A stretch of 64,000 bases of DNA. Source: Escherichia coli (lineage in GTDB: Bacteria > Pseudomonadota > Gammaproteobacteria > Enterobacterales > Enterobacteriaceae). The notes beneath the pieces were generated by a model. It saw only the letters and a list, made by a program, of their open reading frames with translations, made no database searches and was not told the DNA's origin. Shown here piece by piece: positions 2,508 to 17,992 of this stretch. Made by a program: the position numbers and the translations under genes. The stretch lies in the NCBI RefSeq assembly GCF_013122565.1, contig NZ_CP053258.1; one strand, 5' to 3'. Position 1 is the stretch's first letter; every line of letters begins with the position of its first letter.

Positions 2508-2820
2508 GCTACGCCTCTGTTAAAAATGTTAATCAATGTTAAGTGAGGTAACAATAGCAAACTTGTACGAAATATGTGTACAGAATGATAAATTAATTTT
2601 TTGCATTTAGTGCTAATGCATATAAAACAACAAGTTATGATAAAAAGTATTGCATCATTTAAATGACAACCTATACAAGAATTTTCGCCAACTCATCTTT
2701 AACTTTTTCCATTTTTTATCAATGTAAAGAAACAGTTATGTTTTGGTATTAAAAGAAAGACACCGGAAGAGATGTCTGTTACCGTCTTACTCTCGCCTCT
2801 CCCATTACACTGGACAGTTA
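2508..2820. promoter_or_regulatory. Divergent AT-rich promoter region for ycgZ operon and bluF; TGTAC-containing imperfect inverted repeat at about 2563-2583
   Basis: 312-bp AT-rich spacer between divergent starts; motif cTTGTACgaaatatgtGTACAg seen 56-76 nt upstream of the ycgZ start. Confidence 0.4.
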
Positions 2821-4032
2821 ATGCTTACCACCCTTATTTATCGTAGCCATATACGTGACGACGAACCTGTCAAAAAAATCGAAGAAATGGTTTCGATAGC
2901 AAATCGCAGGAACATGCAGTCTGACGTAACAGGGATCTTACTGTTTAATGGTTCTCATTTTTTCCAGCTTCTGGAAGGTCCGGAAGAACAGGTTAAAATG
3001 ATATATCGGGCTATATGCCAGGATCCACGGCACTATAATATTGTTGAGCTGCTGTGCGATTACGCGCCTGCTCGCCGTTTTGGCAAAGCGGGAATGGAAT
3101 TATTTGATTTGCGCCTGCACGAGCGAGATGATGTTTTACAGGCCGTATTCGACAAAGGCACATCAAAATTTCAGCTAACTTATGATGACAGAGCGCTACA
3201 ATTTTTTCGTACTTTTGTCCTTGCAACCGAACAATCAACCTATTTCGAGATCCCTGCCGAAGACTCCTGGCTTTTTATCGCTGACGGATCTGATAAAGCA
3301 CTTGATTCCTGTACCCTTTCACCAAATATAAACGACCACTTTGCTTTTCATCCTATTGTCGATCCCTTATCGCGGCGGATAATCGCTTTTGAAGCCATTG
3401 TGCAAAAAAATGAAGATAGCCCATCAGCTATAGAGGTTGGGCAGCGTAAAGACGGGGAAATCTACAAAGCGGATCTCAAAAGTAAGGCGCTTGCATTCGC
3501 GATGGCACACGCACTTGAGCTCGGTGATAAAATGATTTCAATCAATCTATTACCTATGACCCTGGTTAACGAACCTGACGCAGTCTCTTTTTTACTTGAT
3601 GAAATAAAGGCCAATGCTCTGGTGCCTGAACAAATCATCGTTGAATTTGCTGAAAGTGAAGTCATATCTCGGTTTGATGAGTTTGCAGAAGCGATTAAAT
3701 CGCTAAAGGCTGCTGGTATCAGTGTAGCAATTGATCATTTTGGCGCAGGTTTTGCCGGTTTGTTACTCCTGTCACGCTTCCAGCCTGACAGAATTAAAAT
3801 CAGTCAGGAATTGATTACCAATGTTCATAAAAGCGGGCCACGGCAGGCAATTATTCAGGCGATCATAAAATGCTGTACATCACTTGAAATTCAAGTCAGT
3901 GCTATGGGCGTGGCAACACCAGAAGAGTGGATGTGGCTTGAATCCGCAGGAATTGAGATGTTTCAGGGAGATCTGTTTGCTAAAGCTAAATTGAATGGTA
4001 TCCCTTCCATAGCGTGGCCAGAGAAAAAATAA
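2821..4032 (+). CDS. bluF: Blue-light sensing BLUF-EAL protein BluF (YcgF), anti-repressor of BluR
   Basis: ORF track 2743-4032; conserved start taken at internal ATG 2821 (MLTTLIYRSHIRDDEPVKKIEEMVSIANRR...), giving 403 aa. Confidence 0.9.
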   Translation: MLTTLIYRSHIRDDEPVKKIEEMVSIANRRNMQSDVTGILLFNGSHFFQLLEGPEEQVKMIYRAICQDPRHYNIVELLCDYAPARRFGKAGMELFDLRLHERDDVLQAVFDKGTSKFQLTYDDRALQFFRTFVLATEQSTYFEIPAEDSWLFIADGSDKALDSCTLSPNINDHFAFHPIVDPLSRRIIAFEAIVQKNEDSPSAIEVGQRKDGEIYKADLKSKALAFAMAHALELGDKMISINLLPMTLVNEPDAVSFLLDEIKANALVPEQIIVEFAESEVISRFDEFAEAIKSLKAAGISVAIDHFGAGFAGLLLLSRFQPDRIKISQELITNVHKSGPRQAIIQAIIKCCTSLEIQVSAMGVATPEEWMWLESAGIEMFQGDLFAKAKLNGIPSIAWPEKK

Positions 4033-4152
4033 TTTCCAGCATATTCTTTCACATGATTTCAGTAAATCATCGTGAAAATGAATACGTTATGTTTAAATTT
4101 AATCCACATTAAAAATAATGTTTCATCCAATTTAGCTGAAATCTTATTTATA

Positions 4153-4184
4153 CTTTGTACAATTTTAGCGTATATTGTACAAAG
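4153..4184. promoter_or_regulatory. Inverted repeat cTTTGTACAAt-N10-aTTGTACAAAg upstream of bluR; candidate MerR-family operator
   Basis: Two copies of the self-complementary octamer TTGTACAA 20 bp apart with 11-bp reverse-complementary arms, centred about 69 nt upstream of the bluR GTG start. Confidence 0.4.
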
Positions 4185-4236
4185 TATTATTGGGTCGTGT
4201 ACAGGCGACGGAGATTTGTGACCGCAAGGAGGAATT

Positions 4237-4968
4237 GTGGCTTATTACAGCATTGGTGATGTTGCTGAACGTTGCGGGATTAATCCTGTCACTCTCCGGG
4301 CCTGGCAACGCCGCTACGGTTTGTTAAAACCACAGCGCAGTGAAGGCGGACACCGACTCTTTGATGAAGAAGACATACAACGCATCGAAGAGATCAAGCG
4401 TTGGATAAGTAATGGCGTCCCTGTAGGCAAAGTTAAAGCATTACTGGAAACCACCAGCCAGGATACGGAAGATGACTGGAGCCGCCTGCAAGAAGAGATG
4501 ATGTCAATTCTTCGTATGGCTAATCCTGCCAAACTACGCGCGAGAATTATTTCACTGGGTCGAGAGTACCCAGTAGATCAATTGATTAATCATGTTTACC
4601 TTCCTGTTCGCCAGCGTCTCGTGCTTGATCACAACACCTCCCGCATTATGAGCAGTATGTTTGACGGCGCATTAATTGAATACGCAGCAGCCTCGCTTTT
4701 CGAAATGCGCCGTAAGCCCGGTAAAGAAGCCATTCTGATGGCGTGGAATGTTGAAGAGAGAGCCCGATTGTGGCTGGAAGCATGGCGTTTATCATTATCA
4801 GGATGGCACATTTCTGTTCTTGCTGATCCCATTGAATCGCCGCGCCCGGAACTGTTCCCAACGCAAACGTTGATTGTCTGGACAGGCATGGCACCAACGA
4901 GAAGGCAAAACGAACTTTTACAACACTGGGTTGAGCAAGGTTATAAAGTCATCTTTCATGCCCCCTAA
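4237..4968 (+). CDS. bluR: MerR-family transcriptional repressor BluR (YcgE)
   Basis: 243-aa [59 protein letters not shown]... with MerR-type N-terminal HTH; GTG start preceded by AAGGAGG. Confidence 0.9.
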
Positions 4969-6220: not shown

Positions 6221-6475
6221 ATGCAAAATCAAGGAATGAATATCCAAAGCAAACTATACGCATATTTAAATAAATATGACACTCGTCTTACAGAAGAAAA
6301 AATTGCGATTGAGAAAGCCATTAGAGAGTTACATTTTAGCAGCGAGCATGTTGATAACAAGAAAATAATACTGAAGTTACTATCATTTTTATCATATACA
6401 GATGATGTTGTCGAAAAAGACATTATCAGAAATGCATTGGAAGTGGTTCTTCTTTTTACTTCCGATGATATTTAA
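6221..6475 (+). CDS. AriR/YmgB-family small protein, paralog of ariR
   Basis: 84-aa ORF; C-terminal half VDNKKIILKLLSFLSYTDDVVEKDIIRNALEVVLLFTSDDI aligns with Ari[42 protein letters not shown]; weak Shine-Dalgarno. Confidence 0.55.
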   Translation: MQNQGMNIQSKLYAYLNKYDTRLTEEKIAIEKAIRELHFSSEHVDNKKIILKLLSFLSYTDDVVEKDIIRNALEVVLLFTSDDI

Positions 6476-6717: not shown

Positions 6718-7041
6718 ATGAAGTGGATAGTAATTGACACGGTAATTCAACCTACATGCGGTATATCTTTTTCAGCCATATGGGGTGATATGAAAATGAT
6801 CGTCTGGTATCAATCTACTATATTTCTCCCTCCTGGCAGTATATTTAAACCGGTTAAATCTGGTATTATCTTTAAGGATAAAGAATACCCTATTACTATT
6901 TATAACATCGCACCATTCAACAAGGATTTATGGAGTTTACTCAAAAGCAGTCAAGAGTGTCCTCCAGGAGAAAGCAAAATAACAAATAAATGTTTTCATA
7001 ATAGTTGCATTATAAAAATATGCCCATATGGGCTCAAGTAA
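6718..7041 (+). CDS. iraM: Anti-adaptor protein IraM (stabilizes RpoS by inhibiting RssB)
   Basis: 107-aa [36 protein letters not shown]...ICPYGLK; size and sequence match IraM (YcgW). Confidence 0.85.
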
Positions 7042-7143: not shown

Positions 7144-8394
7144 TTACATGTTTTCGATGATCGCGTCACCAAACTCTGAACATTTGAGCAGCTTAGCGCC
7201 TTCCATCAGACGTTCGAAGTCATAAGTTACGGTCTTCGCGTTGATTGCGCCTTCCATACCTTTAACAATCAGGTCTGCGGCTTCAGTCCAGCCCATATGG
7301 CGTAACATCATCTCTGCGGAGAGAATAATAGAGCCTGGGTTAACTTTGTCCTGACCGGCATATTTCGGCGCAGTACCGTGGGTGGCTTCAAACAGGGCGC
7401 ATTCGTCACCGATGTTTGCGCCAGGGGCGATACCAATACCACCAACCTGCGCTGCCAGGGCGTCAGAAATGTAGTCACCGTTCAGGTTCATACAGGCGAT
7501 AACGTCGTATTCAGCCGGACGTAGCAGGATCTGTTGCAGGAACGCATCAGCGATCACGTCTTTAATGACGATCTCTTTGCCGGTGTTCGGGTTTTTAACT
7601 TTCAGCCACGGGCCGCCGTCGATCAGTTCACCGCCAAACTCTTCACGCGCCAGCTGGTAGCCCCAGTCTTTAAACGCGCCTTCGGTGAACTTCATGATGT
7701 TACCTTTGTGCACCAGGGTCACAGAGTCACGATCGTTAGCAATTGCGTATTCGATCGCTGCACGAACCAGACGTTTGGTGCCTTCTTCCGAACACGGCTT
7801 AATACCGATACCGCAATGTTCCGGGAAACGAATTTTCTTCACGCCCATCTCTTCACGCAGGAATTTAATCACTTTCTCGGCGTCGGCAGAGTCAGCTTTC
7901 CATTCGATACCCGCATAAATGTCTTCCGAGTTTTCACGGAAGATAACCATATCGGTCAGTTCAGGGTGTTTAACCGGGCTTGGAGTGCCCTGATAGTAAC
8001 GTACCGGACGCAGGCAGATGTAGAGATCCAGTTCCTGACGCAGGGCAACGTTCAGAGAGCGAATACCGCCACCTACTGGAGTGGTCAGCGGGCCTTTAAT
8101 GGCAACGCGATATTCACGAATCAGATCAAGGGTTTCAGCAGGCAGCCAGACATCCTGACCATAAACCTGTGTGGATTTTTCACCGGTGTAAATTTCCATC
8201 CAGGAGATTTTACGCTCGCCTTTATAGGCTTTCTCGACTGCAGCGTCGACCACTTTCAGCATGGCTGGGGTTACATCTACACCGATTCCATCACCTTCAA
8301 TGTAAGGGATAATCGGATTTTCAGGAACGTTGAGTTTGCCGTTTTGCAGGGTGATCTTCTTGCCTTGTGCCGGAACAACTACTTTACTTTCCAT
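7144..8394 (-). CDS. icd: Isocitrate dehydrogenase (NADP), intact
   Basis: 416-aa [49 protein letters not shown]...[13 protein letters not shown]; full length with the native C-terminus. Confidence 0.97.
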
Positions 8395-17925: not shown

Positions 17926-17992
17926 GCCGGATGCGGCGCTGATTGCGCCTTATCGTGCCTACATGCACTGAACGCCTGTAGGCACGATAAGT
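17926..17992. repeat. REP (repetitive extragenic palindromic) elements between convergent roxA and pepT
   Basis: gccggatgcggcg...ccttatcgtgcctac and inverted copy gcctgtaggcacgataag. Confidence 0.6.

Follow-up and report, generated by a model that had tools for sequence, protein, structure and literature searches.

The blue-light response governed by the MerR-type repressor BluR and its anti-repressor BluF is the only characterised blue-light pathway of Escherichia coli; Rcs, curli and OmpF control receive input from it. On the ycgZ promoter, BluR footprints a GTACA...GTACA direct repeat that overlaps a TGTAC...GTACA palindrome and covers the -35 element and the promoter spacer (PMC3509220). 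Point mutations in this site abolished BluR binding and derepressed ycgZ to the level of a bluR knockout, as judged by electrophoretic mobility shift and lacZ assays (PMC3509220). BluR also binds, less strongly, to the csgD promoter, where the binding site of the curli activator MlrA, the MlrA box, reads AAAGTTGTACA-N12-TGCACAATTTT (PMC3509220); the idealised form of this box is AAAATTGTACA-N12-TGTACAATTTT (PMC9662190). Here we describe a perfect inverted repeat with TGTACA in both arms between bluF and bluR, in a 64,000-nucleotide stretch of E. coli DNA (assembly GCF_013122565.1, contig NZ_CP053258.1) that was analysed as a whole and is called the window below. From sequence comparison, the repeat is a predicted BluR operator on the bluR core promoter that would mediate negative autoregulation, a reading to which we assign a probability of about 0.6.

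The octamer TTGTACAA occurs at 4155-4162 and again at 4175-4182, which confirms the initial annotation of the window, where two such octamers had been placed 20 bp apart (start to start) within 4153-4184. The same annotation gave 11-bp reverse-complementary arms; these are present, but the perfect repeat extends further, to 14 nt in each arm with 10 nt between them, and the whole dyad measures 38 bp. In the 64-kb window the octamer is found only these two times, against a mean of 0.89 after shuffling, so that its count by itself is not significant. The hexamer TGTACA, too, is at chance level (12 observed, 11.7 expected). Its distribution is uneven: three of the twelve copies lie within 48 bp at the bluR promoter and a fourth in the ycgZ operator. 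For two hexamers separated by 7 to 16 nt, 0.01 occurrences were expected and two observed in the window, both at the bluR promoter. When arms are required to be 14 nt or longer and loops 20 nt or shorter, three perfect inverted repeats are present in the window and none arose in 30 Markov simulations of it.

By primer extension, the 5' ends of transcripts from bluR, bluF and ycgZ lie 54, 30 and 36 nt before their start codons (PMC3509220). Transferred to the window, the bluR start falls within the right arm of the dyad (Table 1); applied to bluF and ycgZ, the same start-codon arithmetic yields plausible -10 elements, in support of the transferred coordinate. Relative to the bluR start, the hexamers occupy -27 to -22 and -7 to -2, the octamers -28 to -21 and -8 to -1, and the arms -33 to -20 and -9 to +5. 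The centre of the dyad (4168/4169) is at -14.5, 7 bp downstream of the centre of the spacer that parts the -35 from the -10 element. A protein occupying both arms would occlude RNA polymerase. The spacer between bluF and bluR, in which a holoenzyme-alone promoter and H-NS binding have been marked (Shimada 2014), measures 204 bp and is 99% identical to that of K-12 MG1655. From 4091 to the bluR start codon, with the whole inverted repeat included, the two sequences are fully identical, and published K-12 experiments are therefore directly applicable to the site. The open reading frame list, megablast and the K-12 annotation were used to assign the genes, with ymgC-ariR-ymgA-ycgZ on the minus strand followed by bluF and bluR on the plus strand.

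Table 1. Features of the bluF-bluR region, in coordinates of the window.
Feature	Position	Strand	Description
Known BluR operator, ycgZ promoter	2564..2582	-	ycgZ strand TGTACAcatatttcGTACA; GTAC cores 13 bp apart; over -35 element and spacer
bluF (ycgF)	2821..4032	+	BLUF-EAL anti-repressor of BluR (function per PMC3509220); lies between the known and the candidate TGTACA-type operators
Probable -35 element TTTATA, bluR sigma-70 promoter	4147..4152	+	Consensus scan, agrees with mapped start; 18-bp spacer; assignment inferred
Left arm of perfect inverted repeat	4150..4163	.	ATACTTTGTACAAT; TTGTACAA at 4155-4162, TGTACA at 4156-4161 (-27 to -22); in promoter spacer, just 3' of the -35 element
Central spacer of dyad	4164..4173	.	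TTTAGCGTAT, 10 bp; length and sequence vary between genera
Probable -10 element TATATT, bluR promoter	4171..4176	+	Consensus scan; ends 7 nt before mapped start; last base is the first of the second TGTACA
Right arm of perfect inverted repeat	4174..4187	.	ATTGTACAAAGTAT; TTGTACAA at 4175-4182, TGTACA at 4176-4181 (-7 to -2); covers end of -10 element and start site, up to +5
bluR transcription start	4183	+	54 nt upstream of GTG at 4237; MG1655 position 1,214,113; published primer extension, coordinate transferred
Third TGTACA	4198..4203	.	+16 to +21; probably outside the conserved site
bluR (ycgE) coding sequence	4237..4968	+	243 amino acids, GTG start; MerR-type helix-turn-helix, MlrA_helical, MlrA_C; predicted fold CarH-like

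The pair of hexamers is shared by other genera. A scan of one genome per species gave 12 bluR loci with common synteny, ariR-ymgA-ycgZ being divergent from bluF-bluR, and in 11 of them a TGTACA pair lies upstream of bluR, its GTAC cores being near -80 and -61 relative to the bluR start. These loci belong to Citrobacter (five), Klebsiella (two), Cedecea, Superficieibacter, Silvania and a metagenome-assembled genome labelled 'Raoultella', whose region upstream of bluR is nearly identical to that of C. braakii; with Escherichia, six genera carry the pair. In an alignment of 13 sequences, conservation of at least 90% is confined to the two TTGTACA blocks, the start codon, a Shine-Dalgarno G and four isolated columns elsewhere. 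The flanks and the spacer of the pair are unrelated between clades. The hexamers are separated by N14 in Escherichia and by N13 in Citrobacter; Cedecea and Klebsiella have N12, Superficieibacter and Silvania N11. This puts the GTAC cores at a distance of 20 bp in Escherichia and of 17-19 bp in the orthologs. Only in Escherichia does the perfect arm reach 14 nt; most others have 8-9 nt, and Silvania has 6 nt. The ycgZ operator is kept in the same genomes, with its cores 13-14 bp apart.

These data also bear on the possibility that the hexamers are plain promoter elements, TGTACA serving as a -35 and TACAAT or TACAAA as a -10, or that the repeat arose by chance. TGTACA does match 4 of the 6 positions of TTGACA, TACAAT (4158-4163, and on the minus strand 4179-4174) matches 5 of the 6 positions of the -10 consensus, and the consensus scan gives promoter-like matches that use these elements on both strands. 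The mapped start at 4183, however, fits TATATT rather than TACAAT or TACAAA. With the first hexamer as -35 and the second as -10, the promoter spacer would be 17, 16, 15 or 14 bp depending on the genus, the shorter of which are non-functional, and the TACAGG of Klebsiella and Silvania lacks the essential T at -7. On the mapped start and the variable spacing, promoter elements were rejected, and chance is excluded by the shuffles and the conservation; taken together, we regard these explanations as hardly credible.

Within the species, megablast against 5,426 complete E. coli genomes located the region in 5,042. A 46-mer that contains the dyad is identical in 4593 of 4969 records (92%), compared with 3515 of 4963 (71%) and 3501 of 4973 (70%) for the flanking 46-mers, the records not being phylogenetically independent. 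Four sampled variant genomes carry three distinct single-nucleotide polymorphisms (T4166C, C4169A and G4170A), all confined to the 10-bp spacer, with the arms unaffected. The repeat is real, non-random and under selection. The third TGTACA behaves differently: it reads TGTAGA in strains 4/1-1 and 8178 and is absent in Citrobacter, Cedecea, Klebsiella and Silvania, and Superficieibacter alone has a further downstream TGTACA, at another distance. A three-site operator that includes it was dropped, as this copy is polymorphic in E. coli and not conserved between genera.

Several side observations concern the same promoter. Cedecea, Klebsiella, Superficieibacter and Silvania (loci L007, L009, L010, L008 and L013) share a second conserved block, GTTAGTTTAGG, GTTAGCCTAAA or GTTACTTTGGA, which follows the second hexamer after exactly N16 (e.g. 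3956-3966 in L010), in the place of the third TGTACA of E. coli. This block might be the -10 element of the bluR promoter in these genera. For 455 of the 5426 complete E. coli genomes, about 8%, the bluR promoter gave no match at all. In E. coli ECCHD184 (NZ_CP033250.1, 1968906-1969740) the insertion sequence IS1 replaces everything upstream of 4206, palindrome and promoter included, and bluR is additionally truncated by an IS3 element.

The natural polymorphisms, which hit the loop and spare the stem, would also suit a function as RNA, namely a hairpin on read-through transcripts of bluF that acts as a terminator or stabiliser and separates bluF from bluR. In favour of such a function, the E. 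coli dyad RNA forms a 14-bp stem with a folding energy of -16.9 kcal/mol (z = -5.0), and bluR reportedly does not share an operon with bluF (PMC3509220). The stem is AU-rich, however, with G-C pairs at 3 of 14 positions, its loop is 10 nt long, the tail UAUUGGGU contains no U-tract, and a terminator scan makes no call. The dyad lacks the G+C-rich stem, short loop and 3' U-tract of an intrinsic terminator, and a terminator or hairpin was rejected as its main function. The bluR mRNA starts inside the right arm and therefore cannot form the hairpin. In the other genera only 8-9 bp can pair around the hexamers (z between -0.9 and -3.3), and the best fold of the Silvania sequence leaves them unpaired. 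In Superficieibacter, a canonical GC-rich terminator followed by a T-run stands apart from the pair, on its bluF side (L008, 3842-3865, between bluF and the hexamers). The conserved feature is the specific hexamer TGTACA and not pairing in general, and a role of the dyad as a hairpin appears quite improbable.

We compared the dyad with the described sites of the family. The csgD MlrA box AAAGTTGTACA-N12-TGCACAATTTT was located in the K-12 sequence and bears out the description of the MlrA box in the initial annotation, TGTACA cores on AT-rich flanks. The resemblance to MlrA-type MerR operators claimed there holds for the cores and flanks, and the left element of the dyad, TGTACAATTTT, equals the idealised MlrA half-site; it does not hold for the gap, the position or the layout of classical MerR sites. 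Instead of the 12-bp gap of the MlrA box, a 33-bp palindrome, the window and K-12 both have N14. The site covers -33 to +5 and not the upstream activator position that the MlrA box takes at csgD. The spacer from the -35 to the -10 element is 18 bp according to the scan, and the dyad is centred at -14.5 and not in the middle of a 19-20 bp spacer as in the classical MerR layout. The comparison with published operators is likewise split: (T)GTACA elements are shared, whereas the cores are 20 bp apart at bluR, 18 bp at csgD and 13 bp at ycgZ. The TGTAC-N9-GTACA motif upstream of ycgZ is present as annotated (TGTAC at 2564-2568, GTACA at 2578-2582), but it is more than a weaker side motif, being the DNase-footprinted and mutation-validated BluR operator. 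Taken together, the dyad is very probably a protein operator for a regulator of the MlrA family.

Among these regulators BluR is favoured. Promoter overlap and conservation together with bluR across genera fit an autoregulatory operator: the site travels with bluR, a parallel TGTACA pair was looked for in the mlrA upstream region of K-12 and not found, and from its position a bound protein can only repress. BluR only represses, and MlrA is an activator working from far upstream. The binding of BluR to the csgD box (cores 18 bp apart) as well as to the ycgZ site (13 bp) indicates that it tolerates differing spacings.

If the dyad is a BluR operator, a BluR oligomer would place one DNA-binding domain on each hexamer and cover the promoter spacer, the end of the -10 element and the start site, thereby excluding RNA polymerase. 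BluF activated by blue light or cold would pull BluR off the DNA, and bluR would be derepressed together with ycgZ-ymgABC. The derepressed gene would then refill the repressor pool and reset the response, and autoregulation would cap the level of BluR. The toxicity of elevated BluR (PMC3509220) provides a reason for such a cap. In a CRISPR interference screen, the bluR guide was among seven that were strongly depleted and grouped with guides against essential genes, which the authors left unexplained (PMC10505187). Guide depletion and over-expression toxicity together suggest that the BluR level is tightly constrained in both directions.

Several observations weigh against BluR self-repression. 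The core spacing of 20 bp (17-20 bp in the orthologs) departs from the 13-14 bp of the validated ycgZ operator. Kluyvera, the only one of the 12 loci without the TGTACA pair upstream of bluR, nevertheless has the gene. Consensus sigma-70 scans upstream of bluR gave no match in Citrobacter, Klebsiella, Cedecea and Superficieibacter, so that the overlap with the promoter is established for E. coli only. PMC3509220 makes no mention of bluR autoregulation, and no report of BluR at the bluR promoter was found in the literature, where a mention in the 2009 Genes & Development or the 2010 MlrA paper is possible. RegulonDB-derived tables hold one classical BluR site, of which the BluR set from DNA affinity purification sequencing recovered none (0/1) and is hence uninformative; in the PPTP-seq study (PMC10505187) the bluR guide RNA dropped out, leaving no read-out of autoregulation. 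Finally, BluR residues 13-34, which span the recognition helix and the beginning of the wing, recur unchanged in every ortholog and in MlrA of E. coli. With identical recognition helices both paralogs should read the same core, and sequence therefore cannot separate BluR from MlrA. In Kluyvera ascorbata (3871-4000; ycgZ upstream region about 2312-2452) the recognition helix is unchanged and the second ycgZ half-site reads GTATA instead of GTACA.

The last point leads to the alternative that the dyad is mainly an MlrA site, at which the curli activator would, by its position, repress bluR. Besides the shared recognition helix, the exact idealised half-site at the left element, the verified csgD box, the N12 gap of the MlrA box in Klebsiella and Cedecea, and the documented residual cross-reactivity of the BluR and MlrA systems speak for such a prediction. 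Across the genera, however, the gap ranges from N11 to N14, with N14 in Escherichia and no fixed N12, and the site co-occurs with bluR while mlrA has no comparable upstream site. MlrA is known at csgD as an upstream activator and not as a core-promoter binder. The significant PPTP-seq edges include none from the mlrA knock-down to the bluR promoter, which is weak evidence as MlrA is barely expressed under the conditions used. A dyad serving mainly MlrA seems unlikely; cross-talk by MlrA, instead of BluR self-repression or on top of it, is possible. It would link the MlrA/CsgD branch with the BluR/Ymg/Rcs branch.

Regulators outside the family that read TGTACA-like DNA, or bind the AT-rich spacer, might also use the site. 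The TetR-family protein RcdA (box TTGTnnACA) binds the neighbouring ycgF-ycgZ spacer, and its best sites include TGTACA, as in TTGTGTACAttTGTACACAA at appY; for H-NS, binding in the bluF-bluR spacer itself has been marked (Shimada 2014). However, TTGTACAA(T/A) misfits TTGTnnACA on both strands, and the SELEX-clos and SELEX-chip lists of RcdA contain ycgF/ycgZ without the bluR promoter. H-NS has no need for a conserved TGTACA pair and leaves the cross-genus footprint unexplained. Either protein as the main user of the dyad is very improbable. A further candidate, SrsR (YgfI), was rejected: the box GCAGGTTTTGC of its genomic SELEX peak at bluR lies at 3745-3755, within the coding sequence of bluF and outside the palindrome, some 430 bp upstream of where bluR transcription starts. 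On the ycgZ promoter, ATGTGTACA at 2574-2582 matches the RcdA box TTGTGTACA at 8 of 9 positions and overlaps the BluR half-site on the -35 element. As a footprint of RcdA on the ycgF-ycgZ spacer is reported, competition with BluR may occur there.

How BluR could engage half-sites at such variable distances was considered from its predicted structure. That BluR is a paralog of MlrA, as the initial annotation had stated, is supported by a published identity of 49% (PMC3509220) and the 48% computed here. Pfam assigns MerR_1, MlrA_helical and MlrA_C to BluR, and the closest solved relatives of its DNA-binding domain found with phmmer are LitR (3whp), CarH (5c8d) and CarA (2jml). An AlphaFold2 model built on the ortholog alignment (pLDDT 85.6) shows a winged helix-turn-helix and a long helix broken at residues 73-76, where confidence is low, followed by a helical bundle and a beta-alpha-beta domain. 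In a Foldseek search against the PDB, the top twelve matches to this model are full-length Thermus CarH (5c8f, 5c8d and the DNA-bound tetramer 5c8e), with E-values between 3e-10 and 8e-7 over 224-276 columns. They are followed by B12-binding domains of other MerR photoreceptors. Classical coiled-coil MerR proteins align over the DNA-binding domain only (about 110 columns). BluR thus models as a CarH-like three-domain protein and not as a coiled-coil MerR dimer. In work ascribed to Jost and colleagues in 2015, CarH is said to engage short repeats as an oligomer in which the DNA-binding domains are tethered, and a CarH-like build, in which flexible linkers would join the winged-helix domains to a core of helical bundle and Rossmann-like domain, may be why BluR tolerates a loose spacing of 13-20 bp between cores.

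The models can be extended to a more speculative scheme, which we consider doubtful. BluR, and by extension MlrA, would be a CarH-fold oligomer rather than a MerR-type dimer, and each loosely tethered DNA-binding domain would read one TGTACA. The dyad would be the ancestral MlrA-type operator kept after duplication of mlrA; its N12 gap would survive in Klebsiella and Cedecea, and in Escherichia it would have drifted to N14. A tetramer could moreover bridge to the ycgZ operator 1.6 kb away and loop out bluF. Such looping would place repressor, anti-repressor and target operon under control as one light-gated unit.

A few features of the window lie outside the BluR system. Its longest perfect inverted repeat is at 1152-1205, with 24-nt arms (ATATCAGGTGTCAAGAATGGAGAG / CTCTCCATTCTTGACACCTGATAT) and a 6-nt loop; it lies about 100 bp past the end of ymgC (1300) and could be the terminator of that operon or a repeat element. 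At 17949-17991, perfect arms of 15 nt (CTTATCGTGCCTACA / TGTAGGCACGATAAG) form an inverted repeat around a loop of 13 nt. Upstream of iraM there is an intact AriR/YmgB-like open reading frame of 84 amino acids, with 39% identity to AriR over 72 amino acids (features at 6221-6475, 6718-7041 and 7144-8394), and the compared K-12 stretch contains nothing that corresponds to the segment between about 6250 and 7090. Directly after iraM follows icd, which indicates a strain without the e14 prophage that sits at icd in K-12.

Negative autoregulation of bluR would be an ordinary kind of regulation and a new, apparently unreported instance of a common motif. The databases at present hold a single BluR site and no feedback, and a self-repression site would add a feedback loop to the pathway. 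Derepression by light or cold would then also refill the repressor pool, which would explain how a toxic repressor is held at a safe level. For the proposed cross-talk between MlrA and BluR, the site names a concrete location. The more interesting by-products are the variable spacing and the CarH-like build of BluR: the natural series of operators, with 13, 17, 18, 19 and 20 bp between identical cores, is usable for studying how the MlrA family engages DNA.

The proposed site can finally be set beside four known systems. In the classical merR/merT operator-promoter, a MerR-family protein represses its own gene from a dyad with GTAC cores (TCCGTAC-N4-GTACGGA), as is proposed at bluR. The MerR dyad is compact and centred in a 19-bp spacer, where a rigid coiled-coil dimer distorts the DNA, whereas the half-sites at bluR are 20 bp apart.

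CarH, LitR and CarA share with BluR the winged helix-turn-helix, the helical bundle and a Rossmann-like domain. Their operators, like the BluR sites, consist of repeated short ACA-containing elements that overlap the promoter, and they repress by occlusion within a light-signalling pathway. Repressors of the CarH/LitR type control their own genes. CarH binds three tandem 11-bp repeats (consensus nAnnTnnACAn) and needs adenosylcobalamin, whereas BluR is released by the BLUF protein BluF, as described in the literature. In the BluR sites, TGTACA carries ACA on both strands, which leaves the orientation ambiguous, and the spacings are 13-20 bp compared with the 11-bp repeats of CarH.

The csgD MlrA box (Ogasawara et al. 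2010) has in common with the bluR site the inverted TTGTACA-type cores on AT-rich flanks and the half-site TGTACAATTTT. Its N12 gap recurs in the bluR promoters of Klebsiella and Cedecea, whereas the gap is N14 in Escherichia and variable among genera. At csgD, the MlrA box activates from a place far upstream of the promoter, while the bluR site, on the -10 element and the transcription start, can only repress.

The remaining system is the BluR operator at ycgZ. This operator was validated by footprint and mutants, whereas the bluR site is known from sequence, its elements being perfect copies of TTGTACAA within a 14-nt dyad. The ycgZ promoter depends on sigma-S and is covered at its -35 element and spacer; at the sigma-70 promoter of bluR, the site lies over the spacer, the end of the -10 element and the start site. 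Both consist of two (T)GTACA elements that overlap a core promoter, in the same locus and in the same genera, and for both the expected outcome is the same, repression lifted by BluF.

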